From: a virus
Lineage: Duplodnaviria > Caudoviricetes
DNA length: 52,603 nucleotides
IMG/VR virus record: IMGVR_UViG_3300021475_000018
Span: 1 to 52,603 of that record
Strand: one strand, 5' to 3'
Below are positions 7,627 to 29,926 of the stretch, one piece after another (positions within the stretch are counted from its first letter, which is position 1; each line of letters opens with the position of its first letter). The notes beneath the pieces are model-generated. The model ran no database searches, was not told where the DNA came from, and saw only the letters and a program-made list of their open reading frames with translations. A program made the position numbers and the translations under genes.

Positions 7627-8364
7627 GTGCAAATTGTTAACCAGCCCATCTTGGGCGGCGGTTTCCGCCACTACTCAGGTTTGCTGCCTGCCATCAACGC
7701 AGCCGGCGACCCCTTCCACGCTTCTGTGAGGCTTTTCCACGTCCCGGCTGCGGACACCAACGCGATGTTCCGCGGAGATATCGCCGTTTCGTCATCGGGC
7801 GCGATTGGCACCCAAGGCGGTGCGGACAATCCGGCCAACATCGGACCGCCGGCCGCAACGCCGGCAACGACCGTCATCGGCAACGGCGGCGGCTCAGGTC
7901 TAGGCAACCAATCGATTGCGCCCAATATCACGCGCTGGGTGCCCGCCGATACTACGTCGCTGATTGTCGGTGCCATCGTCGGCTTCGGTCCGATCACGCT
8001 GTACATGGCCAAGAACGGCTTCCAGTACAAGCCGGCGAGTTTCGAAGCATGGTTCTGGGTGGAGACGGACCCGGCCATGGAATTTACCGCAACCGTACCC
8101 ACCGTGCCCGGCACTGCATTCAATTTGCAGCTCATGGATGGCATCGACGTGAAAGCCAACGCCGGCTTTCAATCGACGCGCTTCGGTATTTCGGGCCTGT
8201 CGCTGGACCCTGCCACCATCGCGACCACGGCTACGCTGCCCCTGCGCATCTTGGGTTCGGGCGAGCAGATCGGCAACGACCCAACTTCGCCGGGTTTCGT
8301 TGCCAAGGTGACTTTCAACAAAAGCCGCCACGCATTCGCCAACGGCGCGTTCGTCGCCGACTAA
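7627..8364 (+). CDS. putative capsid decoration/minor head protein
   Basis: GGAGG RBS; beta-rich protein resembling those that usually precede this type of major capsid gene (recognised from memory). Confidence 0.5.
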   Translation: MQIVNQPILGGGFRHYSGLLPAINAAGDPFHASVRLFHVPAADTNAMFRGDIAVSSSGAIGTQGGADNPANIGPPAATPATTVIGNGGGSGLGNQSIAPNITRWVPADTTSLIVGAIVGFGPITLYMAKNGFQYKPASFEAWFWVETDPAMEFTATVPTVPGTAFNLQLMDGIDVKANAGFQSTRFGISGLSLDPATIATTATLPLRILGSGEQIGNDPTSPGFVAKVTFNKSRHAFANGAFVAD

Positions 8365-8404: not shown

Positions 8405-8983
8405 ATGAAGGAATTTCTTTCCAAGCTGAAGGGCGCAGCGATCGCGGTTGCGGCCGTCGTTGCTTTGATGCTGCCGACCGGTGGCGCTTTGGCCCAGACC
8501 ATCACCGCGCTCCCAAACAACGTCATCATCAACAGCGTTCTGGACATGGGCAACGGCCCCATGGAACTGAAGGTGCTGCAAGGCAACGGGTGGTTGTTCA
8601 CTGCGCAGGGTGCCGGCGTCGGCTCCACGTCGGGTTCGTCCACCACGTTGACGCTCACGGCGACCGCCGCTGCGGACCCGCCATGTGTAGGTTGCGAAAT
8701 TTCCGGCGCCGGCATCACGTCGGGCACCACCGTGGCAGCGTTCAACGGCACCACCACCATCACGCTCTCCGCGGCGATGACGGTTGCGGCGTCCACCCCG
8801 CTTGCATGGGGAATGGCCTGCCCGACCTTCGCAGCGCTGTCCGGCCTGCCCCCGGTACCAAATGTCGGATTGCCGGCTGCCGGCGGCGGTGACTTGCCGC
8901 TGTACACGCAGGCACGGGTCTGTCTTTTGGCGCAGAACGGTCCCGGCCTTACCGTGCTGCCCTTCCCGATCGGCGCGCACTAG
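8405..8983 (+). CDS. signal-peptide-bearing Thr/Gly-rich protein
   Basis: MKEFLSKLKG-hydrophobic-ALA|Q; 4 Cys; ISGAGITSGTTV...TITLS adhesin/fibre-like repeat. Confidence 0.7.
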   Translation: MKEFLSKLKGAAIAVAAVVALMLPTGGALAQTITALPNNVIINSVLDMGNGPMELKVLQGNGWLFTAQGAGVGSTSGSSTTLTLTATAAADPPCVGCEISGAGITSGTTVAAFNGTTTITLSAAMTVAASTPLAWGMACPTFAALSGLPPVPNVGLPAAGGGDLPLYTQARVCLLAQNGPGLTVLPFPIGAH

Positions 8984-8996
8984 CAGCGCTTAGCGG

Positions 8997-9020
8997 CCGG
9001 GGGCTTCGGCTCCCGGTTTT
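8997..9020 (+). terminator. intrinsic terminator
   Basis: CCGGGGGC-TTCG-GCTCCCGG-TTTT. Confidence 0.65.
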
Positions 9021-9044
9021 ACTTTCAACCGGAGGACTGCTTCC

Positions 9045-9338
9045 ATGCGTAAATATTTCGCTTGCGCGCTCGCGATGTCGCTTGCTTTCTCCGCTCCGAT
9101 CGCGGTTGCGGCGCAGACTTCTAAGCAGGGCATGCCAACCATTCACGTTCCGTACAGCGGCGCGGTCAAGGTGCCCTTCATGACGACTGCGCAGCTTCCG
9201 ATTTGCGATAGCTTCAACATCGGCATCATTCTTGGCGTCACCGATGCAACGACGCCGACGTACAACGGTGCGCTGACCGGCGGCAGCAACGTTGCCGTGC
9301 TTGTCGTGTGCAACGGTGCTGCTTGGAAATCGATGTAG
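9045..9338 (+). CDS. small signal-peptide-bearing protein
   Basis: GGAGG RBS; MRKYFACALAMSLAFSAPIAVAA|Q; 2 Cys in the mature part. Confidence 0.7.
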   Translation: MRKYFACALAMSLAFSAPIAVAAQTSKQGMPTIHVPYSGAVKVPFMTTAQLPICDSFNIGIILGVTDATTPTYNGALTGGSNVAVLVVCNGAAWKSM

Positions 9339-9353
9339 CAAGGAGCTGCCGCC

Positions 9354-9671
9354 GTGGCTATGAACCCCATCGTTTCCGTTCCGCGCGACTATCAGCAATG
9401 GTCGAACAACGTCATTCCGGTTATCGACTTTCCGTGCAAAGCCGGTGTGTACACGTTCACAGCGACGGCGACGGCTTGGGGTACGGCGCAGCTTCAGCGC
9501 ATGGTCGCGGACCCCGTACTAGGCGCCGAGTATATCAACATCGGCGCCGCGATTGTGGCCAATGGCATGACCGAGTACCACTTGGCGGCGGGGCAGTATC
9601 ATTGGGCCATCGCGGGAACGACTGGCTTTTCCGGCGTGTTCGAACGTACGGGTTCGTGGGCAGGAAGGTAG
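9354..9671 (+). CDS. putative virion protein
   Basis: AAGGAG RBS; beta-rich. Confidence 0.6.
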   Translation: MAMNPIVSVPRDYQQWSNNVIPVIDFPCKAGVYTFTATATAWGTAQLQRMVADPVLGAEYINIGAAIVANGMTEYHLAAGQYHWAIAGTTGFSGVFERTGSWAGR

Positions 9672-9675
9672 TTGA

Positions 9676-10275
9676 GTGACGTATACGCCGTCAACCGATC
9701 TTCTCGCGCTGTTGCGGAATACGGCGAACGGCGAACGCGTAACCAGTGTCCCCGGGCTCGATTGGGTTGTTGCTGCGCTTGCGCGCGCCGGTTTGATTAC
9801 TTTGGTTGTGAGCCAAACTGCGCCGACTGTTAATCAAGCAATTACGGCGTGGTTTAAACCAAATATTCCCTCATGGACCGCCGAAGGTGTTTTGTTTTTG
9901 TGGAACGGCACAGCATACGCGCCAGCCACGCCCGCATTGTGGAACCAAGTCATAAGTTCCAGCGGCTCGGCGACGCTGAACTATGTTACGATAAATGCAC
10001 TCGGAACCGGTGCATACGCTGCACAGCCAGCCGATGACGTGATTTTGATTAAGTCAGGTGTAGGCGCACCGTTCACGGTAAACGTTGACTGGAGTGCGCG
10101 CACAAAGAAGCTAACCGTTGTTGACAGCGGATTGGGTGCTTTGGCGAACAACATCACCATTGTACCTAAAGCGGGCCAGACGCAAATGGGCACGTTGAAT
10201 TATCAGTACCCCATCGACAGCAACGGCGGAAGTATCACACTCACGCCACTACCGGACGGTTCGGGAGCCTACTAG
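9676..10275 (+). CDS. fibre anchor/adapter protein (paralog family A)
   Basis: N-terminal ~90 aa shared with the 14647 and 15801 proteins (YxPSTDxLxLLRN...GLDWVVAALARAGLI...AEGVLxLWN). Confidence 0.65.
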   Translation: MTYTPSTDLLALLRNTANGERVTSVPGLDWVVAALARAGLITLVVSQTAPTVNQAITAWFKPNIPSWTAEGVLFLWNGTAYAPATPALWNQVISSSGSATLNYVTINALGTGAYAAQPADDVILIKSGVGAPFTVNVDWSARTKKLTVVDSGLGALANNITIVPKAGQTQMGTLNYQYPIDSNGGSITLTPLPDGSGAY

Positions 10276-11876
10276 TGAAAAAGCTTTGTTATATCGCCGT
10301 TGCATTGTTGGCGTTCATCGCGCCGGCAACAGCGCAGGTTAACCCCGGCACGTCGCCGCTGTCAATTGCTAAGGGCGGCACCGCGGCGAACACGCGCGCG
10401 GGTGCGGCGATGAATATTCTTCCTGCGTTCACGGGTGACGTGACAAGCAGTTTGGGTGGGTTTGTACTCACGCTTGCAATTGTGAACAGCAATGTCGGTT
10501 CTTTTGGCTCCGCGACGCAATGCGTGAGTTTCACAACGAACGCCAAAGGTTTGATTACGGCCGCTGCCGTGGTGACATGCACGCCGGGCATCGCGGCCGT
10601 TACCGGGCTTGGGACGAACGTTGCTACGGTGCTTGGTGCTGCCGCCAACGGTTCCGGTGGCGTCGTTGCCCCGACACCAACGCGAGCCGGGGACGTCGTT
10701 TATTGGAACGGAACAACGTGGGTCACGCTAGCAGGCAACAATTCTGGAACGAACGTCCTGCAAGAAACTTCGGCCGGCGTGCCGTCTTGGGTTGCTGCTT
10801 CTGGCGGCGGTACGATGCTGAGCTTGACGCCCGGCGGCGGCTTGGTGTCTTCAGTCACCGCAGCATGTTCGCAAACTGCGGTGACCACAAGCGGTACGTT
10901 TTCGGCTGCGCATTGCATCAACGCGCAAAGCGGGACTTCGTACGCTATTCAAGATAGCGACCGCGCAAAAACTATCATTGCCAACAACGCTGCGGCTCAG
11001 GCGTACGCTATCGCGCAAGCAGGTGCCGCTTCTGCGTTCCAATCAGGCTGGTATACCGATATTCAAAACAGTTCGGTTAACGCCGCAGCCATAGTCACCA
11101 TCACTGCTTCAACTTCGCAATTGTGTGCACAAGGAACGTGCGCACCTACGTACAAAATACTACCCGGACAGTTTGCGCGTATTTCATCGGACGGTACGAA
11201 CTACCAAGTTACAATGAACCCGGCGCTAAAAGCGCAGACAAGGCAAGTATTTCTTTCGGGTACCGGCGCTACGTATACGACGCCAACGCCGGCACCGCTC
11301 TATGATGTTATTCGCATGCAGGGCGGCGGTGCCGGCGGCGGCGGTTCGGGCACTGGTGGCGGCGCTGGTACGGTTGGAAATGCAAGCTCCGTTGTCGTGA
11401 GCAGCACCACCATTACCGCAGGCGGCGGCGGTGCGGGTTCGGCGGGCGGCGGTTCGGCATCGGGGGGTACTAATACCAACTGTACGACTGGGATTGTTGC
11501 CGCCGTTACAAGCGCAGTTGGGTATTCAGGCGGAGCCAGCGGTGCGGCTTCCGGGGGAACCAACATTCCGGGCGGAGCCGGTGGGAGTACGTCAACGGGC
11601 GCGGGCGGCGGCGGTGGCAGCACTTCGCCCGGCGCGGGCGGCCCCGGCGCCACGAACAGCGGCGGAGGCGGTGGCGGTGCGGGTGATGGGTCTGTGGGTC
11701 CGTCAGGCAGCGGCGGCGCGGGCGGCGCTTATTGCGAGCTGGTAATATCGCCCGTACCTGCAACTATGACGTACACTGTCGGGGCCACGGCGGCTGCCGG
11801 CTCCGCAGGTACTAGCGGCGCAGCCGGTGGTGTCGGCGCTGCTGGGGATATTATCTTTGAGGAACACTATCAATGA
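10275..11876 (+). CDS. glycine-rich tail-fibre-like protein with signal peptide
   Basis: PLSIAKGGT fibre motif; C-terminal Gly-rich domain (GGGAGGG...GDIIFEEHY); N-terminal ATA|Q signal. Confidence 0.7.
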   Translation: MKKLCYIAVALLAFIAPATAQVNPGTSPLSIAKGGTAANTRAGAAMNILPAFTGDVTSSLGGFVLTLAIVNSNVGSFGSATQCVSFTTNAKGLITAAAVVTCTPGIAAVTGLGTNVATVLGAAANGSGGVVAPTPTRAGDVVYWNGTTWVTLAGNNSGTNVLQETSAGVPSWVAASGGGTMLSLTPGGGLVSSVTAACSQTAVTTSGTFSAAHCINAQSGTSYAIQDSDRAKTIIANNAAAQAYAIAQAGAASAFQSGWYTDIQNSSVNAAAIVTITASTSQLCAQGTCAPTYKILPGQFARISSDGTNYQVTMNPALKAQTRQVFLSGTGATYTTPTPAPLYDVIRMQGGGAGGGGSGTGGGAGTVGNASSVVVSSTTITAGGGGAGSAGGGSASGGTNTNCTTGIVAAVTSAVGYSGGASGAASGGTNIPGGAGGSTSTGAGGGGGSTSPGAGGPGATNSGGGGGGAGDGSVGPSGSGGAGGAYCELVISPVPATMTYTVGATAAAGSAGTSGAAGGVGAAGDIIFEEHYQ

Positions 11877-12172
11877 TGCCGGACCCAAAAGTAAGGTGCC
11901 CCGCAACAGCCTTCACGCGCACATGCCGTGAAATCCTGGGGGAGTGCGACTGTCCGAAATTCGTCAGTGTCAAGGGCCACGACCCGCAAACCGGCGCCGT
12001 TGTTGATCGGCATGGTTGCGTGGACAGCTTCTTGCCGCTACTATTGATTGAAAATGCTCAGGTGTCGCGGCAAACTGGCGCGGCTGTCGAAAGCCTGCGT
12101 AACGAAATTGTCAAGAGTGCTGAAGATCGGCAGGTTGCGCTCGCAGCGGCTCAGCAACGATTTCTGAGGTAA
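11873..12172 (+). CDS. Cys-rich fibre-associated phage protein
   Basis: CP...C...C.C..F...G.DPQTG...GC...LPLLLIEN...TGAAVESLRNE pattern, typically found after podovirus fibre genes. Confidence 0.65.
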   Translation: MMPDPKVRCPATAFTRTCREILGECDCPKFVSVKGHDPQTGAVVDRHGCVDSFLPLLLIENAQVSRQTGAAVESLRNEIVKSAEDRQVALAAAQQRFLR

Positions 12173-12178
12173 AGAGTC

Positions 12179-12469
12179 ATGCAAATCTATAACCGGGGAA
12201 CGACAGTGCATCACCACCTTGACACCCTTAACTGGCCGGTGCTGGGCGTGAACGCCGCTGTTTTACCGTGGTTGAACGATCTGTGGACTTACGTTCCGGC
12301 TCCCACAGCGATCTACATGATTGTGTCGGCGGCCTTTATGTTGTTCCAGATGTCTGATAAGCTGGGCTTGCTGCACCGTTTCAAGCGGCACGCACCGGAG
12401 ACGGCAGAAGATCGGCGGGCAACTTCCATCATCAAGGAGCTGCCGGATGTCCCACAACAGGAGCACTGA
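12179..12469 (+). CDS. small membrane protein (holin-like?)
   Basis: Two hydrophobic segments and a charged C-terminus. Confidence 0.45.
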   Translation: MQIYNRGTTVHHHLDTLNWPVLGVNAAVLPWLNDLWTYVPAPTAIYMIVSAAFMLFQMSDKLGLLHRFKRHAPETAEDRRATSIIKELPDVPQQEH

Positions 12470-12472
12470 GCG

Positions 12473-12802
12473 ATGACTGCTTTCAAAGGCCACAAGACGG
12501 GCTTCAATCCCAAGGGCAGCAACGCATGCGTGCCCAACGAAATGGGTCCGCCAACGACGAAGTTCAACGGGCGCCCTGCGGTGCCGGCTGGACCGCTGAA
12601 GCGCTACCCGGGCGCGGCTGCGGACATTTCGAACGGCAATCGTCGGCTCGCGAAGGCCAACCATGGCGAAGGCGATGGCAGCGGCGTGACTTTCAGCGGC
12701 GCCCCCAGCGGCTTCAAGAATACCGGAGGAATGTCCAGCGGTCGCAAGCCTGGGGGTATGGGCGGCAAGCGCAGCAAGGATATGTCGGACAATCGGAAAT
12801 AA
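12473..12802 (+). CDS. Gly/Lys-rich disordered protein
   Basis: GGAG RBS; low-complexity and basic. Confidence 0.6.
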   Translation: MTAFKGHKTGFNPKGSNACVPNEMGPPTTKFNGRPAVPAGPLKRYPGAAADISNGNRRLAKANHGEGDGSGVTFSGAPSGFKNTGGMSSGRKPGGMGGKRSKDMSDNRK

Positions 12803-12807
12803 CGACG

Positions 12808-13020
12808 ATGGGCAAAGACGCGAAGGGCCACGGTTCTGCTGCTCGCGGCGGCCGGCAAACAAAAATGACCGCCATGCGTTTTGAACACGCGGCCCGTACG
12901 GGCGTGCTTGGTTCAAAGTTCAAGTCGAAAGCGGTGCGTAGCGGTAAGCAGGCGAAGATGACGAAACTAAGATCGTCGTTTCGTTTCAACGCTGCGTTAA
13001 AGTCGCCACGTTCGAAGTAG
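12808..13020 (+). CDS. small highly basic protein
   Basis: MGKDAKGHGS...; K/R-rich. Confidence 0.5.
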   Translation: MGKDAKGHGSAARGGRQTKMTAMRFEHAARTGVLGSKFKSKAVRSGKQAKMTKLRSSFRFNAALKSPRSK

Positions 13021-13032
13021 AAGGGAACTTAC

Positions 13033-13446
13033 GTGTTCTATCGCCCAGGCGGCACGGCCAAAGCGCCCAATCGTCAGTACGATACGGTCTATGCCGACAC
13101 CATCGGCATGGCTACCGATTGGCTGCCGATCAACAAGGGCGATACGATCGCGGTCAACATCGCGCGCGCCTCCATCGTGTTCGCGAGCGCTGCGCAGAGC
13201 ACGGTGACCGCGACGCCGTTCGCGCCGGAAATGAGCGTAGTTATGGAACTGGCCGTTTTGGGCGGCGCGGCTCCGATCAAGTTTCCAATCGATAACTGGG
13301 AAAACGTAGTCGTTGCTACGTCACGTCGGGCGCATCGCGCGGGTTTTGTACGGTTGAAGATTTTGAACATCAATAACGGCGACGGTACGGGCCTTTTGAT
13401 GGGCTTGCAAATCAGCCGTACGGGCGAGAGCGGAGCGGTGACATGA
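13033..13446 (+). CDS. putative virion protein
   Basis: Beta-rich ORF in the structural cluster. Confidence 0.6.
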   Translation: MFYRPGGTAKAPNRQYDTVYADTIGMATDWLPINKGDTIAVNIARASIVFASAAQSTVTATPFAPEMSVVMELAVLGGAAPIKFPIDNWENVVVATSRRAHRAGFVRLKILNINNGDGTGLLMGLQISRTGESGAVT

Positions 13447-13592
13447 ACGAACAAGAAATTCGAGCTTGCGTGATGCATGTTCGCGGCGCCATAGCGAACA
13501 ACGACGAAAAGGCAGCGTTGGATGCGATTGAAATCCACAAGGATTTCAATCGCATCGCCGATGCGCTCGAAAAGATGGCGAGCAAGGGGTAG
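13443..13592 (+). CDS. 49-aa hypothetical protein
   Basis: ATGA overlap; MNEQEIRACVMHVRG...RIADALEKMASKG. Confidence 0.45.
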   Translation: MNEQEIRACVMHVRGAIANNDEKAALDAIEIHKDFNRIADALEKMASKG

Positions 13593-13595
13593 CGC

Positions 13596-14225
13596 GTGGG
13601 CGGTTTCGACAACGGGTCAATTCAAGGCGGCGTCTTTTTTCAGGCCAAGCAATTCGGCTCGGTATTGCGCGGCGCCGGCCCGCCCGTGCCCCAATCCGGC
13701 GTTGTCGGCGACGTCTATATCGATACGCAGTCATGGTTTTTGTACGCCAAGCGGAGCGCAGATAATACGGACCCTTGGGGGCACTATTTGTTTCAAGTGC
13801 CCGTGACGTACCGTACGGCGCTGAAGTGGTTTAGCGCATCCGCGCCGGATAGCAGCATAGGCGTGCCCGGGGACTACTGCTTACTTTGGAGCGGCTGGTC
13901 TAACTACGGCATGCAGCCTTCGATCTACGGACCGAAGCAAGCCGCGGGATGGCCCGAAAACGGCAATGGCGGCACTGTTCCGATCGCAGCCGCGGGCGCC
14001 GGAACTGTGTTGCCAGTCGGTTTGCTGGACGAAGGGGCGCCGTTGACGTACAGCACGTCAACGCAGTTGATCGCAGTTGGTTTGGCGGATGAATTTATCC
14101 TCGCTGTTCCGGTTACTGCGGCTGCCGGCGACCCAGTAACGCAGCAAGGATTGCAGTCCGGACCGGCTGCGGTCGCCGTCGTGCTCAATCCGCTGTACAC
14201 CGCCCAGGACGGTCATGGTGTTTAA
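13596..14225 (+). CDS. fibre-associated virion protein (paralog family B)
   Basis: Highly similar to 14229-14657 (GFDNG..QGGVFFQ.KQFGS, DPWGHYLFQVP, LNPLYTA). Confidence 0.65.
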   Translation: MGGFDNGSIQGGVFFQAKQFGSVLRGAGPPVPQSGVVGDVYIDTQSWFLYAKRSADNTDPWGHYLFQVPVTYRTALKWFSASAPDSSIGVPGDYCLLWSGWSNYGMQPSIYGPKQAAGWPENGNGGTVPIAAAGAGTVLPVGLLDEGAPLTYSTSTQLIAVGLADEFILAVPVTAAAGDPVTQQGLQSGPAAVAVVLNPLYTAQDGHGV

Positions 14226-14228
14226 ACG

Positions 14229-14657
14229 ATGTCCGGCTTTGACAACGGGACACTTCAAGGCGGTGTCTTCTTCCAATCGAAACAATTTGGTTCGATTATT
14301 CGCGGTTTAGGTCCGCCCGGGCCGGCTGCCGGCGTACAAGGTGATCTGTACATCGATGTCTTGTTGTGGTTCCTGTACGCCAAGCGCGCAATTGACGACA
14401 CAGACCCGTGGGGTCACTACCTGTTTCAAGTGCCCGCGACGTACCAAGCGCAGCTCAAGTGGTTCGGCAATTCCATACCGACGAATGATGTCGGCATCAA
14501 CGGCGATTACTGTTTGATCTGGGGCGGCTATCCGAACTACGGTCTGCAACCTTCAATCCTCGGTCCGAAAGCCGCGGGTGCATGGCCGGGCTCGCCCAAC
14601 GCGGTCGCTGTGACGTTGAACCCGCTGTACACGGCGGAGGACACGCATGGTTTATAA
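14229..14657 (+). CDS. fibre-associated virion protein (paralog family B, short)
   Basis: Tandem paralog of 13596-14225 lacking a ~65-aa internal segment. Confidence 0.65.
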   Translation: MSGFDNGTLQGGVFFQSKQFGSIIRGLGPPGPAAGVQGDLYIDVLLWFLYAKRAIDDTDPWGHYLFQVPATYQAQLKWFGNSIPTNDVGINGDYCLIWGGYPNYGLQPSILGPKAAGAWPGSPNAVAVTLNPLYTAEDTHGL

Positions 14658-15801
14658 CCCAGCAACAGACTTTCTCGCACTTTGGCGCAACATCGCTGGC
14701 GTCGTCTCCAAGGTAGAAATGCCGGGGCTCGATTACGTTGTCGCCGCGCTCGCGCGTGCCGGCGTGATCACGCTGTCTGTTTCAGCGACCGCGCCAGTCG
14801 TCAGTCAGTCGACGACGGCATGGCTGCAAACGGCTGTCCCAAGTAATTCGGCCGAAGGCGTATTGTTTCTGTGGAACGCGGTCACAAGCGCGTACGTACC
14901 CGCTACGGCCGCGTTATTTCTCGATCTTTTGGAGGCATCGGCCGGGCAAAGTGGCGTCTCATGGTGGACTTCAGTCGGTGGGCCGCCACTTAATACAGTC
15001 GGCAATAACGGTGATTTTGCTGTCCGTACAGACGAACCAAACGGCATTTACGGCCCGAAAGCCTTGGGCGTGTGGCCCGCCTCTCCGCTGCCCGGCACCG
15101 CTGACGTACTCACGAGCAGTGCGCTTGACAACACGTTCGGCGCAACGGAGGGCGAGCTAGTCTACCGCGGCCCGCTTTTATGGCAAGGGCTCGGCATCGG
15201 CGCCGCCGGGACAGTCTTGACGCCTTCCGGCGGTGTGCCTGCATGGGAAGCACTGTCCGCGCTGCTTGACGCCGTGTTCGGCAACGTGCAGGGCGATATT
15301 TTGTACCGGGACACTGCCGCATGGAAGACGCTTGCCCCGGGTGTGGCGGGCACGGTTTTGACTACCGGGGGTGCGGGCGCCGACCCGTCGTGGCTGTCGT
15401 CGCCGTCCACCTTTCCATCCGGCACAGTCATGCTGTTTCAACAGACCGCGGCCCCCGTGGGCTGGACAAAGCAAACGGCTTTCAATGACTACGGCTTGCG
15501 CGTGGTGTCTGGCGCGGTCGGTTCGACGCCGGGCACCGCTTTTAGCACCGTGTTTGCGCAAACTTCAGTTGGCAATACGGCGCTGAATGCCTCGCAGATA
15601 CCCGCGCATACGCATCCAGTTAGCGCGTTGCAATTCAACACGACGGATAACGGCACCATCGCTGCGATCGGGTACTATTCCAATTCTGGCGGTGCCGGCG
15701 GCGTTGTTACGGATAACAATACAGGCGGAGGCGGTGCGCATAATCACTCGGTCAGCTTGGCTCTGTCGTACGTCGATATGATACTTGCGAGCAAGAACTA
15801 A
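14647..15801 (+). CDS. tail fibre protein with collar-like C-terminal domain
   Basis: Family A N-terminus; repeated GD/ELxYR..W..L..G..G.VLT units; FPSGT.MLF.QT.AP.GWTK, IPAHTH and AHNH motifs. Confidence 0.75.
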   Translation: MVYNPATDFLALWRNIAGVVSKVEMPGLDYVVAALARAGVITLSVSATAPVVSQSTTAWLQTAVPSNSAEGVLFLWNAVTSAYVPATAALFLDLLEASAGQSGVSWWTSVGGPPLNTVGNNGDFAVRTDEPNGIYGPKALGVWPASPLPGTADVLTSSALDNTFGATEGELVYRGPLLWQGLGIGAAGTVLTPSGGVPAWEALSALLDAVFGNVQGDILYRDTAAWKTLAPGVAGTVLTTGGAGADPSWLSSPSTFPSGTVMLFQQTAAPVGWTKQTAFNDYGLRVVSGAVGSTPGTAFSTVFAQTSVGNTALNASQIPAHTHPVSALQFNTTDNGTIAAIGYYSNSGGAGGVVTDNNTGGGGAHNHSVSLALSYVDMILASKN

Positions 15802-16409
15802 TGTACAACCCGTCAACCGATTTTCTTTCGTTGCTGCGAAATACAGGCAGTGGCAAAAGCGTGCTCAACATGCCGGGGTTGGATTGGACCGTTGCAGCGC
15901 TCGCTCGCGCGGGTCTTATCAACTTATCGGTTGGGCAAACCGCGCCAATGGTCAATCAGCCGACTACGGCATGGTTTAAACCATCGCAACCGTCATGGGT
16001 TGCAGAAGGCGTGCTTTACTTGTGGAACGCCAGCGCGGCTCAGTACCAAGTTGCTACGCCGTCACTGTGGCAGGCTGCGCTTTCCGGTACGAACAGTTAC
16101 GCATTCCAATCGGCGAAGTCTGCATCGAACCTCGTTAATGCGGGAACGACATTGTTGGCAATCCAACGTGCAGGGCCGTCTGCGACGACGCTTATACTCC
16201 CGCCGCTTAATCAGCGCATTGCAGGCCAGCTTTTGAAGGTCGTCGATTGGTCAACAGCGGTTGTCAATCATGCCGTAACCATCACGACTACGGATGGTTC
16301 GTCAATCATGCAAGAAACTTCTTGGGGCTTGCTATCGACGGCTGTACAACTTGCCGGTATTGGTTTATACCCGTCTCCTGATCTCAATGGGTGGGTCATT
16401 GCACCATGA
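15801..16409 (+). CDS. fibre anchor/adapter protein (paralog family A)
   Basis: Full-length paralog of 9676-10275. Confidence 0.65.
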   Translation: MYNPSTDFLSLLRNTGSGKSVLNMPGLDWTVAALARAGLINLSVGQTAPMVNQPTTAWFKPSQPSWVAEGVLYLWNASAAQYQVATPSLWQAALSGTNSYAFQSAKSASNLVNAGTTLLAIQRAGPSATTLILPPLNQRIAGQLLKVVDWSTAVVNHAVTITTTDGSSIMQETSWGLLSTAVQLAGIGLYPSPDLNGWVIAP

Positions 16410-17944
16410 AATTTGGAAAACTCGAAGTTGTTCTTTTTGTACTCTTCAATATGTTGGTTGCTTCGCCTGCGATTGGGCAGTGGCAGACGCCCGCGCACTC
16501 TGTCCCTATCGGACAGGGCGCCGGCATCACCGGCTTCGGCAGTGCGGGCCCGGCTGCCGCGGGCGTTCCGTTTGTCGGTAGCGGACCTACATCGGACCCG
16601 GTATTCGCGCCGCTTAATTTGGGTACGGCGGTAACTGGTAATATCATAACTTCGGCTGTGGGCTGCGTGAGCGCTACGCCATGCGTCGGGGATAGCGGCA
16701 TCGCTGCCGCGAACGGTACAATGACCTTCACCAAAAACAGCCTGACTTCATTGACATTCCACGACGCAGTAAGTTCGCCAGACACGGGCACATTCGGTAC
16801 GGCGCAATCCGTACAATGCGACCCGGGTTACATCATGACGGGCGGCCCGGGCCCCGGACCTTGTACGCAGCTAGGCTTTACGCCAAATCCCAGTAGCGTA
16901 TGGAGCGCGTTGCTTCTAGGGGGCTTCAATGCGCGTGCCGTCATGGGCTCGTACGGCGGTGTCGAAAACCCTGAAATAATCTGCGCCGACACGAACGTTT
17001 TTGGAGTGCAGATCGGCAATGGCGGTAACCAATCAGGTTGCGGATATCTCGGCGCCGCGCGGATCGGCGCCGGCTCCCCGGTGTCTTTCAACATGACCGC
17101 TGGAGGCTTTCCTCAGACTAGCGTCACGGCTTCGTTTGTCACGGGCAGCGGTAACGGCAAGATGACAGTTACGGCGCAATCAGGTTCGCCGATCGTTTTC
17201 GGGGAGACTTTCGTCGGGGCTGGAATTACTGCTCTTAACCCGCATGGTGCGCAAATCACTGGCACCGCCGCAATAGGTTCGGGGAACTGCTCCCCAGCGT
17301 GCACGGGTACCGGTGGCGTCGGCACCTACGCGGTCAATATCAACTCGGCGATCGGCTCGGAAACCATGATTGGCGGCCCTTCCGGCGCTGAAAATTCGAT
17401 GACGCTGGATTTGTGGGGTTTTTCGCTCGCGGGTGACACACAGAATGGTGTTTTCGTTTTCAGCGGCTCGCAAGTTGCGGCGTGGGGTAATTCGCCCGGG
17501 GGTGCGTCGCCGGCCGGCAGTCGCAATGGCGAATTCGCTGGTACGGGCATGGCGGGAGACGGACTGTACACACAAACGGAAACCGGCAGCCGTAATTTTT
17601 ATTTTGACGTAGGCTGTACGGGCACGCACACGGACGGTTCTTATCAGTGTGCCAATAACGATGTTGGGCGGCTTGCGCCGAACGCAATCGCTCCGGAACG
17701 CGTCACCAACGTATTTGATAGTGCGGGTAACCTTTTGCTTGGCGCCAATGGGAGCAGTGCTGGTTTCGCTGCGTTCGGCAACACGATAACCGGGCAAACC
17801 AGCAATTCGTTGGTATTCTATCCAGCTTCAGGCAACCCGACAGGCAACCCGCCATCTGGCGGAGGTTTGCTTTACACGCTCGGCGGTGCTTTGAAGTACA
17901 AATCCGGCGTGGGGACCGTTACCACTATTGTAGCGGGACCGTAG
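16406..17944 (+). CDS. Gly/Ser/Thr-rich fibre/adhesin-like protein with signal peptide and 10 Cys
   Basis: ATGA coupling at 16406; MKFGK-hydrophobic-AIG|Q; C-terminal PSGGGLLY..GGALKYK.G.GTVTTI fibre-tip-like motif. Confidence 0.7.
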   Translation: MKFGKLEVVLFVLFNMLVASPAIGQWQTPAHSVPIGQGAGITGFGSAGPAAAGVPFVGSGPTSDPVFAPLNLGTAVTGNIITSAVGCVSATPCVGDSGIAAANGTMTFTKNSLTSLTFHDAVSSPDTGTFGTAQSVQCDPGYIMTGGPGPGPCTQLGFTPNPSSVWSALLLGGFNARAVMGSYGGVENPEIICADTNVFGVQIGNGGNQSGCGYLGAARIGAGSPVSFNMTAGGFPQTSVTASFVTGSGNGKMTVTAQSGSPIVFGETFVGAGITALNPHGAQITGTAAIGSGNCSPACTGTGGVGTYAVNINSAIGSETMIGGPSGAENSMTLDLWGFSLAGDTQNGVFVFSGSQVAAWGNSPGGASPAGSRNGEFAGTGMAGDGLYTQTETGSRNFYFDVGCTGTHTDGSYQCANNDVGRLAPNAIAPERVTNVFDSAGNLLLGANGSSAGFAAFGNTITGQTSNSLVFYPASGNPTGNPPSGGGLLYTLGGALKYKSGVGTVTTIVAGP

Positions 17945-17945
17945 T

Positions 17946-18395
17946 ATGAAGATTTTGCTTTCCACGCTTTTCATAATCGCCGTGATGACTTCAGCCGTGG
18001 CCCAAACCGCCGCGCAAAAACAGCAGCTCTTAGAAGATCGAAAGTTCTTCGGCTTTGGCGATTGTCGTACGCGTCGTGAAGACCCCCGGATACTCGATAC
18101 CCCAGATGATATCAAAGTGCGCGACATTGTTGATGCGCGCATAGGCAGCCGCATCGACCGGCAACGCGTGGCTCAGGGCGGCATTGCCGATAATCCGATC
18201 ATAACTGCCGCCGATATCGAGCTGCATCGCACCGCGCTCGCGTTAATCCGTACGTGGGCTTTGATGCTTCCGGAAAGCCGCGTACGGCAAACGTACCTAT
18301 GCGTGGTGCAAATATACGTACGTGACCTTGACGAAGCCGCGGACGAACTGGTAACGCATAGGCTGCAAAAACAGGTAGCACCCTCGAAAGGTTAG
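17946..18395 (+). CDS. signal-peptide-bearing helical protein
   Basis: MKILLSTLFIIAVMTSAVA|Q. Confidence 0.6.
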   Translation: MKILLSTLFIIAVMTSAVAQTAAQKQQLLEDRKFFGFGDCRTRREDPRILDTPDDIKVRDIVDARIGSRIDRQRVAQGGIADNPIITAADIELHRTALALIRTWALMLPESRVRQTYLCVVQIYVRDLDEAADELVTHRLQKQVAPSKG

Positions 18396-18398
18396 CTC

Positions 18399-18692
18399 AT
18401 GTTCCACCGCATTGCCGTTATTTCGCTGCTCGTCATCGCACCCGCATTCGCTCAACAACCGGTCGCGACGGAAGACCCGGTTGTCAAGGCAGATAGCTAC
18501 TGGCAGCGCTACCACGCACAGCGCGAAGCAGCGGCAGGCCAGCAAGTAGTTTCGTTGGCGCGTCGCATCGATGATTTGGCCGCTCAGATTGAAATTCTCA
18601 AGGGCGAGCTGGCGGCAAAAGCTTCTTGCGTACTTGCGGTGCCGCAGCCTCCGGAAGCTCCGAAAGTTGACATCCCAGAACCGCCCAAATGA
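18399..18692 (+). CDS. signal-peptide-bearing coiled-coil protein (fibre chaperone or spanin-like?)
   Basis: AFA|Q signal, heptad segment and Pro-rich tail; lies just before the endolysin. Confidence 0.55.
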   Translation: MFHRIAVISLLVIAPAFAQQPVATEDPVVKADSYWQRYHAQREAAAGQQVVSLARRIDDLAAQIEILKGELAAKASCVLAVPQPPEAPKVDIPEPPK

Positions 18693-19210
18693 GTAGCTTT
18701 TACGATACCGTCATCCGCAATTCGAAAGCGTTTCGATCGGACGCCGTGTGCAAAGACATGGCGATGCTAGAGCCCGGTACGCGTGCGGCGGTGCTTGCGC
18801 TGGTAGCTGATGCCAAAGCCGAAGGCATCGATTTGCGGGTGCTGGAAACGTACAGAAGCCAGACTCGGCAAAGCTACCTCTTTACGAAGCACGTTACTCA
18901 GCTACGCATCGTCGGTTGTCACGGGTATGGCGTCGCGGCCGACTTCGGCGTATTCGTGAACGGGGTTTATCAGGAAAAGAACGGTCCGTACGTTTTCCTG
19001 CGCGTACTGGCGCGCAAGCACGGGCTTATCAGCGGACAGGACTGGGGTCATGCGAAAGAGGGCAGCTTCGTTGATAGCGGGCACGTACAGCGCGTTCCCG
19101 TGTGGCGCCAGACAGCGCTGTTCAACAGCTCATGGTATCCTCCGGTCGATTACGACCCGTACAAAGACAGCGTGGCCAACCATCACGCCGACGTGGTAGC
19201 TAAGGTTTGA
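18689..19210 (+). CDS. endolysin, M15 family peptidase
   Basis: LETYRSQTRQ..L, H.YG.AAD and D.GHVQ Zn-ligand motifs. Confidence 0.8.
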   Translation: MSSFYDTVIRNSKAFRSDAVCKDMAMLEPGTRAAVLALVADAKAEGIDLRVLETYRSQTRQSYLFTKHVTQLRIVGCHGYGVAADFGVFVNGVYQEKNGPYVFLRVLARKHGLISGQDWGHAKEGSFVDSGHVQRVPVWRQTALFNSSWYPPVDYDPYKDSVANHHADVVAKV

Positions 19211-19630
19211 GTACCGTCGCCACGTCGCCGACTTCATTCGCTTTGACCGTCTGAAGCTCGCCTTCCGTGCCGTGGTAAGCGTTGCCGTCGTCCCACCCCT
19301 TGGGGTTAGGCTGGGCTGCCTGCAAAGCGGCGAGAGCTGCGGACCCGGGCGAGGCTTCACAGTAGGCAGCACGCCGGACGCCGTACCGGCCTGCGAAGTA
19401 GGGGGAGCCGCCTGGGTAAACTCCGCCATTTCGTCACGCATTTCCTTCAAGTCGGAAATTTCCGCATCCATAGCGTTTAGATGGGCAGCGCGGGCCTGTC
19501 CGCGGGCTTCTTCCACCTTGGCGCCGTAGGCGATTACTTCGTCGTACATGGCTGCGCTGGCGTCCATCTGCGCCCCAACGACGCCCATAGCTTGACGCCG
19601 TTTAGCCTTCAGTTCCTCTTTGGTCGCCAT
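19200..19630 (-). CDS. hypothetical protein, apparently frameshifted near 19350
   Basis: MATKEELKAK... The -1 frame gives a more protein-like end (SAALAALQAAQPNPKGWDDG...VLKP*), stopping at 19200. Confidence 0.5.
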
Positions 19631-19867: not shown

Positions 19868-20176
19868 ATGAACCAAACGCAAGTACAGACGACGGCGGCA
19901 CCGCTTATCGCCGTCGCGGCAGGCTACGCGGCAGCGCACGGTTGGCTTGGGCTAGGCCAAGGCGACTGGGGGACCGTCATCACCGCGCTGGGCGCGGCGG
20001 CAGTTGTGCTGTGGCCCGCCCTCGTGACCCGGGCGCAGTCGCTCAAGAACACGGTGGGCAACATGGATCATACGACCGTGGTCACCGACAAAGCGTCGGC
20101 CGACGCCCTGCCCGAAAACAAGTCTGTCGTCGCCGTCACGCCTGAAATCGTCGCGGCGATCAAGAAGGCGCAGTAA
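19868..20176 (+). CDS. putative holin
   Basis: AAGGAG RBS; two TM segments; near the endolysin. Confidence 0.55.
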   Translation: MNQTQVQTTAAPLIAVAAGYAAAHGWLGLGQGDWGTVITALGAAAVVLWPALVTRAQSLKNTVGNMDHTTVVTDKASADALPENKSVVAVTPEIVAAIKKAQ

Positions 20177-20275: not shown

Positions 20276-21856
20276 GTGACCGTCTACCCCTGGGAGCAGC
20301 CTCCGTCTTTTTATCCGTGGCAGCAACCGCAACCTACGGAAGCGGAGCGCAAAGCGGCGATGCGGGCCAAGCTCCGCGATTTTGATTTCTATCGAGAGCG
20401 GTTCCTGCGCATCCGTCCGCGTGCCGGCGGCGAGCGCATCCCGTTCATTTTGAACAACGCCCAGCGCGTGTTGCATGCGCGTTTGGAAGAAGAGAAGAAG
20501 CGGTTCGGCATGATACGCGCGCTCGTGCCCAAGGCGCGGCGTATGGGCGTAAGCACGTATATTGGTGGACGCAACTTCCATCAAATCGGAACCATGTTCG
20601 GTCGGCGTGCGCAAGTGGTGGCGCACCGCGGCGACAGTGCAGCTAACCTGCATCGTGAAATCAAGGAGTTTGCCAACAGCTTGCCGGGCGCCGTACAGCC
20701 GTCGATTGGTGCCACCAACTCTTATGAAGTGATCTTTGACAAGCTCAAATCGCTTTACAAGGTGGCGTCGGCCGAAGGCGGCGATATTGGCCGTTCCGAC
20801 GATTTCCATAACCTGCATTTGTCGGAAGCCGCTTTCTTTGATAACACGGAAGACCTTTCGTCAGGTTTGCTGCAAACCGTACAAGACTTGCCCGGTACGG
20901 AGATTATAGAAGAGAGCACCGGCAACGGCCAGTCCGGCATGTTTTATAATCAATGCGAGGAAGCGGCGCGGCAGGGCAACAAAGGTCCGTGGCGCATCCA
21001 CTTCTTGCCGTGGCCCGTCATGCCAGAATATCGCCAAACTGTGCCGATCGGCTGGAAAGCACCGCAGGACTTTGAAGAGTACGCGCGCATGCATGGCGTG
21101 GACCGTGAACAACTGCATTGGTTCTGGACCAAGAACTATACGATAGCCGTCATGAACGGCGGGCAACCGGAGAAAATTCACCGGCTCACGCGTCAGGAGT
21201 ATCCGGCCATCTATAGCGAATGTTTCATGGCTGACAGTACGCTTGATTTCTTCCCGGCTTCCACCGTATCCGCGGCAATGGTGCGCAAACCGAACCCGTC
21301 CGCTGGGGCGCTGAAGCTGCTTTGCGTGGACCCAGCCGGTGACGGGCAGGACAAGCCTTTTGTCTGCGATCGGCAAGGCTCCGCGATCGGCGCTAAGGTT
21401 TGGGGCGAGCTGACAAGTCGGGACTACAACGTGCAAGCTGACTGGCTTGTGGCTACGTTTAAACGCTTCGATATGGATGCCATCCTTATTGACGTGACTG
21501 GCACTGGCAAAGGCCTGCTTGATGCCGTGCGGCTCCGCATGCGCGCGTACGGTCCCGAAAAAGTGGTTGCGGTCAACTTTGCCTGGGGTGCTTTGAACGA
21601 TACGTTGTACGGCAACCGACGTGCGGAGCTTCATGATAAATTTCAACGTTTCTTGCAAAGTGACGTGTACATACCGAATGACAAGATGTTGCAGGATGAA
21701 TGCGCCGCTTATAAATGGGGTGTGGGTGGTTGCCGCCGTGACGAAAAAGCGCGGCTGTTCATGACCCCAAAAGAGAAAATTAAAAAGGAGCTGAAGCCTA
21801 CGCGCTCGCCCGACCGTTTGGACGCCTGCGTTGTTTCGATGGCAATGGAGCTTTGA
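20276..21856 (+). CDS. terL: terminase large subunit
   Basis: LNNAQ, PKARRMGVST (Walker A), LHLSEAAF (Walker B), EESTGNG coupling motif; nuclease motifs VDPAGDG and RSPDRLDA. Confidence 0.93.
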   Translation: MTVYPWEQPPSFYPWQQPQPTEAERKAAMRAKLRDFDFYRERFLRIRPRAGGERIPFILNNAQRVLHARLEEEKKRFGMIRALVPKARRMGVSTYIGGRNFHQIGTMFGRRAQVVAHRGDSAANLHREIKEFANSLPGAVQPSIGATNSYEVIFDKLKSLYKVASAEGGDIGRSDDFHNLHLSEAAFFDNTEDLSSGLLQTVQDLPGTEIIEESTGNGQSGMFYNQCEEAARQGNKGPWRIHFLPWPVMPEYRQTVPIGWKAPQDFEEYARMHGVDREQLHWFWTKNYTIAVMNGGQPEKIHRLTRQEYPAIYSECFMADSTLDFFPASTVSAAMVRKPNPSAGALKLLCVDPAGDGQDKPFVCDRQGSAIGAKVWGELTSRDYNVQADWLVATFKRFDMDAILIDVTGTGKGLLDAVRLRMRAYGPEKVVAVNFAWGALNDTLYGNRRAELHDKFQRFLQSDVYIPNDKMLQDECAAYKWGVGGCRRDEKARLFMTPKEKIKKELKPTRSPDRLDACVVSMAMEL

Positions 21857-22869: not shown

Positions 22870-23541
22870 TTACAGGCCGTTGAAGTGCTTCTGAAGCCCG
22901 ACGCGGAAGGTGGTGTCGTCAGGTAGGCCTTGCTGAGCCGGCGAGTTGTAGAGCTGCGCATAGGTGGACCAGCCCGCCGAAACGACATAATCGATTTCCG
23001 CGCCCACGGCCATGACCGAGAGGCCATGACGTTGCACACCGCCAAAAATGAAAGCCGGTGTGGACGCAGCCAAAAAGTTAGCGGACACCAAGTTGAGAAA
23101 GGGATTTTGGGATGCCGCCGGGGCTTGGGTTGCCGATGACGGGAAGAAGTTGTAGCCGAGCTTAATAAACTCAGTCCCGACGAAGTTGCCCCCGGCCGGC
23201 TTTACGCCCGCGGGCGAAAACTCATAACCCCCGGTCAACTCGATACCGGCGAGCCACTGGCCGGTCCAAAGCTGGTAGCCGCCGCCGGCAAAGATATCGA
23301 GCCCATCCGAAAACGCACTGTTGACGCCGTTCGCAAGAATGTTCGGAGTGCCGACGTTGTTCTGAGCCCCCATGCCGAAGCTCGCGAACCAACCGGAACA
23401 GTTGCCGGCGGACTGGCACGGCTGTACGGCGGGAACGGCCGGGGCCTTGACGAAGGTCGCGAGCTTCGGCAAATCGGCAGCAACAGCGGAAGATGCCAGC
23501 GCAGCAAGCGCGACGCCGGCAAGAAGTGCAGATTTGAACAT
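22870..23541 (-). CDS. outer-membrane beta-barrel protein (Omp25/RopB-like porin family)
   Basis: Signal peptide AVA|ADLP...VKAP; GW-type first strand; GGGYQ...G.W..GIE; GAEIDY; FRVGL last strand. Confidence 0.75.
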   Translation of the reverse strand: MFKSALLAGVALAALASSAVAADLPKLATFVKAPAVPAVQPCQSAGNCSGWFASFGMGAQNNVGTPNILANGVNSAFSDGLDIFAGGGYQLWTGQWLAGIELTGGYEFSPAGVKPAGGNFVGTEFIKLGYNFFPSSATQAPAASQNPFLNLVSANFLAASTPAFIFGGVQRHGLSVMAVGAEIDYVVSAGWSTYAQLYNSPAQQGLPDDTTFRVGLQKHFNGL

Positions 23542-29531: not shown

Positions 29532-29680
29532 TTGTACGGCTCCTTTGCTAGCTGCGCCCCTACGTGAGTACAAATACGGATGACGTGTGAATATGTCAAT
29601 ACCAAGCTTGACTTGCGGCGGCAAATCACCGCATGTGCGCACAACTGCACACTTCACAGTCAGGGCGGAGGGGGCGCTAC

Positions 29681-29926
29681 ATGCAGGGGTACTGGTGGGC
29701 ACGGACACCCGAAAATGCGCTATTTGTAGTCATGGTGGTGGGTGAAAAGGGCTATGTTCCCGGGGTGGAAGGTGCTATAGATTTAGGCGACTTTTTCATG
29801 ATCGAGCCCGTCCCATGGCCGCGACCCGCAACCCAAAGCCAAAATTCGGTTCTGCCGTCACCTGGGGCGCGTGCTCTCGTTGCAACGCCCGGGTCAAATA
29901 TTCTACCCTTTGTCGCGAGAGGTTGA
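29681..29926 (+). CDS. hypothetical protein
   Basis: GGAGG RBS. Confidence 0.5.
   Translation: MQGYWWARTPENALFVVMVVGEKGYVPGVEGAIDLGDFFMIEPVPWPRPATQSQNSVLPSPGARALVATPGSNILPFVARG

Follow-up and report, generated by a model that had tools for sequence, protein, structure and literature searches.

Signal-bearing, cysteine-paired receptor-binding proteins in an uncultured soil phage: a possible periplasmic branch of virion assembly

The DNA analysed here (the window) is the whole of virus record IMGVR_UViG_3300021475_000018, 52,603 bases from an uncultured soil phage (CheckV, 100% complete; labelled 'linear'), and our subject is the cluster of fibre-type genes between positions 8,405 and 18,692, which we name by their first coordinate (Table 1). 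Two distal receptor-binding proteins of this cluster, 10275 and 16406, together with the smaller proteins 8405 and 9045, begin with segments that, judged from hundreds of homologous sequences, behave like true cleaved Sec signal peptides; their mature parts carry paired cysteines, and each distal protein follows a short adaptor that has neither signal nor cysteine and whose C-terminal domain co-varies with the mature N-terminus of its partner. From these patterns, and from the fibre-type domains of homologues, we infer export and cleavage, disulfide formation and, above all, docking on the virion and the timing of that docking. The resulting model is one of two-part host recognition, in which signal-less adaptors would be joined at lysis by exported distal proteins, and we put its probability at about 0.5. 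Export of these proteins, taken by itself, is well supported by the sequences and appears highly probable.

Export signals and their conservation

An earlier sequence-only reading of this DNA had listed six open reading frames (ORFs) with Sec-type signal-like starts, and re-reading of the sequence confirmed all six and their coordinates. Lys or Arg stands among the first residues in each of them, followed by a hydrophobic stretch and a small-x-small motif before Gln (8405 ALA↓Q, 9045 VAA↓Q, 10275 ATA↓Q, 16406 AIG↓Q, 17946 AVA↓Q and 18399 AFA↓Q, the arrow marking the cleavage-like site); all six obey the -1/-3 small-residue rule, and purine-rich stretches lie upstream of the starts. The starts of 10275 and 16406 are fixed because their start codons overlap the stops of the upstream genes, the GTG of 10275 sharing one base with the TAG of adaptor 9676 and the ATG of 16406 overlapping the TGA of adaptor 15801 (ATGA). 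The signal-bearing genes belong to a series of structural genes, all on one strand, in which stops and starts overlap.

Signals were called with our own crude rule-based test rather than with a trained predictor. It flags seven of the 53 window gene products, namely the six and the product of 22870-23541 (-), and residue-shuffled window proteins pass it 3.35 +/- 1.71 times per 53 (maximum 8 in 200 shuffles); the window count is modest because the proteome is rich in Ala, Val and Leu and shuffled proteins also pass. The strong and convincing evidence for the signals is their conservation in relatives, not this count.

A HMMER search with 16406 of 1.84 billion cluster representatives (50% identity) returned 212 proteins at E<=0.001, of which 139 were examined. 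About a dozen of the matches extend over the body of 16406, and most cover only its residues ~1-85, beginning at their own residue ~1-20; apart from this part they are unrelated proteins, ~70-1,100 residues long. The mature start typical of 16406, Q-[WFY]-[QA]-x-P, is present in 119 of the 139, always 18-39 residues from the annotated start. Among these 119 type-A representatives, position -1 is Ala in 113, Gly in 4 and Ser in 2, position -3 is Ala in 97, Val in 16, Thr in 4 and Ser in 2, position -2 accepts any residue and Pro stands at -4 in 106. Ahead of the cut, the stretch free of charged residues is 16 residues long (median), the cut falls at median position 22 and the n-region is net positive in 109, while a twin-arginine motif and a Cys at +1 each occur in 0 of 119, which indicates neither a twin-arginine translocation (Tat) nor a lipoprotein signal. 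Mean pairwise identity is 33% over the 16 residues before the cut and 75% over the 16 after it (n=109). A core that drifts freely, combined with strict residue classes at -3 and -1, points to substrates of signal peptidase I rather than to a membrane anchor or a chance hydrophobic stretch.

The same behaviour was found in the relatives of the window itself. When viral contigs were scanned with the fibre 14647, 14 related loci emerged; three lie on contigs of 50-53 kb, and L006 and L007 are near-duplicates. All eight syntenic orthologues of 16406 show the pattern just described. Orthologues of 8405 (five loci) and 9045 (two loci) have basic-hydrophobic N-termini that differ in sequence and end just before the conserved mature start; in the case of 9045, the copies in L008 and L002 keep the hydrophobic N-terminus, the cut before Q-T-S-K and both Cys, the L008 copy being missed by our rule because of one Glu in its core. 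The 8405 family comprises 296 homologues at E<=0.001, and among the 120 on which counts were taken a signal is flagged in 118, the other two being an obvious signal with an Arg in its core and a truncated sequence. The earlier reading had treated the six ORFs as one set: 8405, 9045, 10275 and 16406 are indeed conserved across a large clade of ~52-kb metagenomic phages with the signal kept, and 17946 and 18399 are not.

The seventh flagged product, at 22870-23541 (-), is a protein of 223 residues that starts with a classic signal-like segment (AVA↓A), has two adjacent Cys in its mature N-terminal part and, with its beta-rich look, resembles an outer-membrane protein; it has no match in Pfam, PHROGs, NCBIfam or PADLOC, and it may be a host-derived accessory gene and, as such, a clue to the host.

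Adaptors, docking modules and cysteine pairs

The adaptors 9676 (type B) and 15801 (type A) share with the fibre 14647, and with all relatives, an N-terminal domain of ~95 residues that has 20 invariant positions over 16 adaptors and also heads longer fibres in relatives (808 and 462 residues); most likely this domain anchors its proteins to the tail. Among the window's relatives, with the near-duplicates included, 15 of the 16 short adaptors precede a signal-bearing, Cys-rich protein. The N-domains are alike over all adaptors (79-147 bits) and the C-domains fall into three groups (69-171 bits within a group, <=30 bits between groups), the type of the C-domain being that of the mature N-terminal module of the downstream partner in 14 of 14 pairs. 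In the partner, the conserved block stops sharply ~45 residues into the mature protein, and this module heads more than 100 unrelated bodies. The type match, the sharp module edge and the unrelated bodies together form the pattern expected of a docking interface.

The description of 10275 and 16406 as fibre-like holds up on sequence features: both look like fibre or distal receptor-binding proteins lying downstream of signal-less adaptors. In mature 10275 a conserved N-terminal module leads into fibre repeats and then into a C-terminal region rich in Gly; in 16406 the signal is followed by a conserved docking-type module of ~45 residues (from nucleotide 16478) and a variable body with five Cys pairs. 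Scanning of 19 homologues found a C-terminal Peptidase_S74 domain in two, a right-handed Beta_helix in one and Laminin_G_3 in one; the two S74 proteins, P0004 and P0006, are homologues of 16406 (PF13884; E 6e-12 and 7e-11), and neither 16406 nor 10275 has a Pfam match to this domain. A repeat of 14647 (residues 185-249) recurs directly after the signal of the exported homologue P0004. The six signal-bearing ORFs and the adaptors have no Pfam, PHROGs or NCBIfam match, and PADLOC returned nothing usable for them (one match at 0.0099 with no matched stretch). Among solved structures, sequence searches with 16406, 10275, 14647, 7627 and the adaptor profile yielded no meaningful match. The prediction of a complex between three adaptor C-domains and three mature modules scored 0.02, the partner's own fold being uncertain, and weighs neither for nor against binding.

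The cysteines were as the earlier reading had given them, both in the mature counts (4, 2, 8, 10, 2 and 1 for 8405, 9045, 10275, 16406, 17946 and 18399) and in the complete lack of Cys in the signal-less 9676, 14647 and 15801, as well as in the arrangement of the ten Cys of 16406 in five neighbouring pairs (87/93, 138/153, 193/212, 295/299 and 404/415). Its further proposal, that the paired cysteines form disulfides, gains from their behaviour among homologues. In an alignment of 16406 with its five body homologues, the alignable body has 16 Cys columns forming eight neighbouring pairs, with both members present or both absent in every sequence; further scattered Cys columns occur in the poorly aligned N-terminal third. 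Pairs 138/153 and 295/299 are invariant, pair 193/212 is present in five sequences with both members missing together in the sixth, pair 404/415 is present in two and missing in four, and pairs 357/364, 393/424, 453/472 and one C-terminal pair each occur in one or two sequences, never as a single member. Mature Cys counts are even in all ten complete distal proteins of the window and the related loci (6-18 Cys), in 9 of 9 members of the 16406 family, in 107 of 119 type-A representatives (contig-end fragments included), in all 120 listed members of the 8405 family (118 flagged and 2 missed by the rule; four Cys in 119, two in 1) and in 66 of 72 signal-bearing members of the 10275 family, several of the odd ones being mis-cut sites of our rule. 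Gain and loss in pairs and even counts are what disulfide-bonded cysteines would be expected to show.

Signal-less proteins of the virion module are nearly free of Cys, with none in the 1,327-residue protein, 7627, 9676, 13033, 14647 and 15801, the exception within the module being the signal-less 99-residue protein 11873, with five; counts in the signal-less anchor-domain proteins are 0, 0, 0, 4, 0, 0 and 1. Genome-wide, signal-bearing proteins have 1.76 Cys per 100 residues and all others 1.15; the contrast is lost at this scale, where the Cys-rich replication enzymes count among the others, and is confined to the virion module. Within the 10275 family the median is 1.84 Cys per 100 residues for the 72 signal-bearing members and 0.18 for the 48 signal-less ones (even count in 24), which lends the disulfide reading weak support, the long alignments to the signal-less members having been made with composition correction off. 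The exceptional 11873-12172 (+) protein is conserved, with its five Cys in the core of the orthologues in all 10 loci that have one, and it is followed at 12179-12469 (+) by a conserved protein of 96 residues with one hydrophobic segment; a metal-binding or membrane role of the two in assembly or lysis is possible.

For 8405, the fibre-like label fits less well. The signal and the paired Cys stand, and the protein resembles a head-decoration protein or surface knob more than a fibre. Identity to its listed homologues is 56-94%, and its AlphaFold 2 (AF2) model (predicted local distance difference test, pLDDT, 91) has a helix at residues 2-22 followed by beta strands. Among solved structures, it comes closest to the decoration protein of Arthrobacter phage Bridgette (8eci; Foldseek E 0.013, probability 1.0), with 33% identity over 73 columns, a profile E of 0.1 and a VIA Z of 7.9 over 78 residues, a Z below 8 being compatible with no more than a common arrangement. 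All seven of its BFVD matches at E<=0.001 are viral, at template modelling (TM) scores of only ~0.3, and those that carry a name are annotated as fibre, tail-collar or virion structural proteins. With low confidence, and from the model, 8405 may be a surface or decoration-type protein.

Assembly in two compartments and competing explanations

Textbook assembly of tailed phages takes place wholly in the cytoplasm. The two-part model would depart from this for the outermost parts of the particle as follows: (i) heads, tails and adaptors would be made in the cytoplasm; (ii) the distal receptor-binding proteins, the decoration-like 8405 and the small 9045 would be exported unfolded via Sec and cut by signal peptidase I before their N-terminal Gln; (iii) in the periplasm they would be oxidised and become disulfide-bonded, probably as trimers, the S74 self-chaperone, where present, being suited to folding there in that it requires no ATP; and (iv) they would dock on the adaptors through their conserved mature N-terminus only when holin and endolysin merge the compartments. 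The earlier reading had proposed export and oxidative folding with attachment to virions or, alternatively, display by the infected cell; conserved signals support the export well, and attachment at or after lysis is the part that we infer from the adaptor pattern.

Several observations weigh against this model. The single-genome signal count is only modestly above chance, about 2 standard deviations over the shuffles. The co-variation of adaptor and module could stem partly from the linkage of neighbouring genes. One adaptor-like protein, L014:11390-12010, stands alone and runs into the endolysin gene with no exported partner, and such a protein may thus work by itself. The AF2 model of 16406, made from 24 sequences, has a pLDDT of 55 and is too poor for a fold search; the model supplied by the Atlas is of low quality too (pLDDT 0.51). 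Between 10275 and its signal-less 'homologues' the link runs mainly through a low-complexity Gly-rich region, and it almost vanishes under default BLAST. A tblastn search of 50,697 phage records gave no match for the adaptor, 8405 or 16406, and no cultured relative of the clade is known. Finally, docking after lysis must compete with dilution.

The main rival explanation, which we consider less likely, retains export and places the activity of the proteins in the envelope of the infected host cell, with no incorporation into the virion. There they might mask or destroy the receptor, serving superinfection exclusion or guarding progeny from re-adsorbing to debris, or they might be displayed as adhesins; the ~200-residue 'adaptors' would then be complete short fibres. 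Signal peptides and disulfides also fit such a role, the L014 protein without an exported partner suits it, and known phages do place exported proteins beside receptor-binding genes (T5 Llp, Cor and lambda Lom). The beta-helix and LamG domains would, moreover, be appropriate for an exported glycan-modifying enzyme such as bacterial WceF (PMC7949094). What an envelope role leaves unaccounted for is a ~45-residue module that sits exactly at the mature N-terminus, matches the adaptor in every pair and heads so many unrelated bodies. The proteins are 300-800 residues long, with fibre repeats and S74 auto-chaperones, whereas known exclusion proteins are small lipoproteins, and a lipoprotein Cys at +1 is missing throughout; the stop/start overlap with the adaptor and the same-strand structural gene run also speak for a virion part. 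An exclusion lipoprotein of the Llp/Cor type was considered separately and rejected on the same count of 0/119 and on the size of the six window proteins (97-533 residues).

A less probable explanation, to which we assign a small share, is that the N-terminal segment stays uncleaved, either as a signal-anchor by which the fibre proteins stay attached to the inner membrane until the cell lyses or as a hydrophobic assembly element, with the Cys forming disulfides only after release or binding metal. N-terminal membrane segments occur in phage signal-anchor-release (SAR) endolysins and in the inner-membrane subunits of spanins (for the latter, PMC3556154), and the free helix at residues 2-22 in the 8405 model is compatible with either view. 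The small residues at -1 and -3 in 119 of 119 representatives and the Pro at -4 in 106, however, answer to the needs of signal peptidase I and not to those of an anchor, an uncharged stretch with a median of 16 residues is short for a membrane span, and the segment drifts freely in sequence while the residues just after it are conserved. That chance or mis-called starts in an Ala/Val/Leu-rich proteome, with coincidentally even Cys counts, account for the data is very improbable: shuffled proteins do pass our rule, but the feature is kept in independent metagenomes (118/120 and 119/139, with invariant -1/-3 classes, and 8/8 syntenic orthologues), the Cys pairs co-vary, 8405 is modelled at pLDDT 91 and the starts are fixed by overlap with upstream stops.

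If the two-part model is true, virion morphogenesis would include a new step, an oxidative branch in the periplasm that serves the host-recognition layer. Such a branch could account for how receptor-binding proteins are kept away from receptor precursors in the cytoplasm, it would give the exposed surface a disulfide stability suited to life in soil, and it would tie infectivity to lysis, particles being non-adsorbing until release. In practical terms, such phages and their receptor-binding proteins would require an oxidising step for production in cell-free or cytoplasmic systems, and a signal peptide would no longer rule out a virion protein. Nor is the feature a one-off, given that the 16406-type signal and module head 119 of 139 representatives and that the 8405 family has 296 homologues.

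Neighbouring genes, relatives and known systems

Table 1. Features of the receptor-binding and lysis region and two marker genes elsewhere in the window; roles are predicted from sequence
Feature	Coordinates	Strand	Details
Conserved Cys-free protein at module head	7627..8364	+	245 residues; 64-69% identical in 4 related loci
Core protein, predicted exported	8405..8983	+	Signal ~residues 1-30 (nucleotides 8405-8494); beta-rich domain; 4 conserved Cys including CxxC
Terminator-like hairpin	8995..9018	+	10-bp stem, 7 G-C pairs; directly 3' of 8405; strongest in region
Small protein, predicted exported	9045..9338	+	97 residues; signal ~residues 1-23; 2 mature Cys
Adaptor type B	9676..10275	+	Shared ~95-residue N-terminal anchor domain and type-specific ~100-residue C-domain; no signal, no Cys
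Distal fibre/receptor-binding protein type B, predicted exported	10275..11876	+	Signal residues 1-20 (nucleotides 10275-10334); 8 mature Cys
Two paralogous conserved proteins	13596..14657	+	209 and 142 residues; reciprocal tblastn; short motif in common with fibre 14647
Signal-less Cys-free fibre	14647..15801	+	Same N-terminal anchor domain and own C-terminal part
Adaptor type A	15801..16409	+	202 residues; no signal, no Cys
Distal receptor-binding protein type A, predicted exported	16406..17944	+	Signal residues 1-24 (nucleotides 16406-16477)
Accessory ORF	17946..18395	+	149 residues; signal-like N-terminus; 2 Cys; not conserved
Accessory ORF	18399..18692	+	97 residues; signal-like or membrane-anchor N-terminus, helical middle, Pro-rich tail; 1 Cys
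Endolysin, VanY/M15-type peptidase	18689..19210	+	No signal; Pfam PF02557, E 1.2e-5; PHROG 6523 'endolysin'
Holin candidate	19868..20176	+	102 residues; two hydrophobic segments; good ribosome-binding site; conserved in L006, L012 and L013
Large terminase (TerL)	20276-21856		Library scans (Pfam, PHROGs)
Tail hub, P22 gp10-type	31117-32592		PHROG 578, E 1e-31

At the head of the module, 7627 has no Pfam, PHROG or NCBIfam match; the closest Atlas clusters that bear a name, 'phage cement protein', score 0.82-0.85, under the 0.9 bar, and a capsid cement-type role is only a lead. Also only a lead is the terminator function of the hairpin 3' of 8405, which would agree with higher production of 7627 and 8405 than of the downstream gene products; terminator-like sites in the region number 14 against 17.8 in shuffles, so their total is not raised. 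The two paralogous proteins between the type-B and type-A genes have orthologues 58-77% identical in 13 loci.

For 17946 and 18399 the fibre-like label does not hold: neither is fibre-like, and counterparts occur in 0 of 14 related loci. In those loci the endolysin gene directly follows the last receptor-binding gene; in the window its start is overlapped by 18399. No family was found for 17946 in Pfam, PHROGs, NCBIfam or PADLOC. From their sequences and position, both are best described as putative, non-conserved, periplasm-directed accessory proteins beside the lysis genes. The candidate spanin inner-membrane subunit in 18399 was rejected, since no lipoprotein ORF lies in or next to 17946-19210 and the protein is missing from relatives with the same endolysin; across 8.4-19.3 kb, the only lipobox ORF is an out-of-frame one of 38-47 residues inside 15801. 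The assignment of 19868 as the holin is likewise that of a candidate, from its sequence features. In the 600-base gap between the endolysin and holin-candidate genes, an open frame on the other strand (19130-19630, -; ATG near 19630) overlaps the end of the endolysin gene and is possibly a convergent gene.

The genome as a whole (G+C 53-64%, no tRNA found) encodes a family A DNA polymerase, a helicase, a primase and an exonuclease, as well as a methyltransferase and a ParB-like protein, according to library scans. The phage is probably short-tailed. Besides the P22 gp10-type hub there is a weak tail-needle match, and the transglycosylase match of the 1,327-residue protein is sub-threshold. Scans of 56 window proteins detected neither an integrase nor a repressor. 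The ParB-like protein (28632-29708, -; PHROG 1033, E 3e-9), in a genome in which no integrase was found, may hint at a plasmid-like carrier state.

The window has no nucleotide match among 50,697 GenBank phage records, and its TerL is <=31% identical to that of any cultured phage. No prophage relative emerged when contigs of bacterial genomes were scanned twice, once with the adaptor and once with TerL. The window sequence or part of it is contained in three soil metagenome runs (one possibly the source), and no RNA run containing it is listed. In the related loci the gene order of the module is the same (tblastn and ORF maps), and many contigs with these genes are ~52 kb long; from the family sizes, the phage group concerned therefore appears abundant in soil. 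Leads to the host are weak: a Bradyrhizobium protein (P0070), a match to a Tunturiibacter phage (Acidobacteriota) and a mis-binned contig of a 'Planctomycetota MAG' (metagenome-assembled genome). P0070 is a signal-bearing homologue of 10275 with 10 Cys, in an 8.87-Mb contig of Bradyrhizobium sp. USDA 4503 (WP_456860290.1), and possibly represents a prophage-borne copy in a bacterium that is in culture.

Full-text searches, mostly without subscription journals, found no report of signal-bearing tail fibres in tailed phages. To our knowledge, none of the systems compared here combines a distal fibre of a tailed phage with a cleavable signal. In T5 Llp, T1/phi80 Cor and lambda Lom and Bor, as in the window, a signal-bearing gene lies beside host-recognition genes, but those products are small lipoproteins or outer-membrane proteins, whereas the proteins described here are fibre-like, carry a type-matched module and have no Cys at +1. 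In the filamentous Ff phages, g3p and g8p are virion proteins with Sec signals, g3p has disulfides and assembly takes place outside the cytoplasm; those phages belong to another realm and assemble the whole virion at the membrane without lysis, while here only the outermost parts would be added outside the cytoplasm. The exported enzyme WceF of the bacterium Pantoea stewartii likewise places a tailspike-like fold outside the cytoplasm, differing in being chromosomal, part of an exopolysaccharide cluster and without a phage adaptor partner (PMC7949094). For 17946 and 18399 there is a possible analogy with spanins and with RI, the antiholin of T4, which regulates lysis from the periplasm and has a cleavable signal (PMC8385771), in that they too are small signal-bearing proteins beside lysis genes; no ORF for an outer-membrane spanin partner was found, and an RI-like regulatory role is only an analogy.

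The one GenBank phage with a match to any exported protein is Tunturiibacter phage Tunturi_4 (PP885687.1), a cultured tundra-soil siphovirus of Acidobacteriota that differs from the window phage in lineage and morphology. Residues 50-113 of 10275 are 52% identical over 64 residues to its gp113, annotated 'tail protein' (455 residues, L016 5872-7239), which has a signal-like start (SFG↓Q) and 8 mature Cys; the next gene product, gp114 ('virion structural protein', 768 residues, L016 7239-9545), starts similarly (SFA↓S) and has 20 mature Cys, and both lie downstream of a small signal-less fibre-type protein, gp112. The Tunturi_4 annotations are bioinformatic, and in the main text of PMC11924767 a term search found neither 'signal peptide' nor 'mass spectrometry', proteomics being mentioned only as a future option. 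These genes suggest that the feature reaches beyond one clade and, the phage being in culture, open the two-compartment proposal to direct experiment. In its broad form, namely that a soil clade, and perhaps many phages of Acidobacteriota or other soil diderms, build their particles in two compartments and add at lysis a secreted, disulfide-bonded outer layer of distal receptor-binding proteins and a decoration-like head protein, trimmed to an N-terminal (pyro)Gln, we hold that proposal tentatively, at slightly less than even odds.

Formal parallels lie in the adaptor and branched systems of short-tailed phages, such as the K1-5/SP6-type adaptor with two tailspikes, G7C gp66/gp63.1 and the anchor-branch arrangement of Klebsiella KP32-type phages, and in P22-type tailspikes with their conserved head-binding N-terminus. 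Neither sequence nor profile searches linked the window fibres and adaptors to a fibre or adaptor of solved structure. With endosialidase-type S74 fibres the link runs through the homologues P0004 and P0006, which carry the domain, and not through 16406 and 10275, which lack it; we know of no report of signal peptides in known S74 members. Like the K1-5/SP6, G7C, KP32 and P22 systems, the module described here has a shared anchoring N-terminal domain, a short docking module and exchangeable bodies that include beta-helix and S74 types. Unlike in those systems, where as far as is known all subunits are cytoplasmic and signal-less, the distal subunit here, but not the adaptor, bears a Sec-type signal and paired cysteines.

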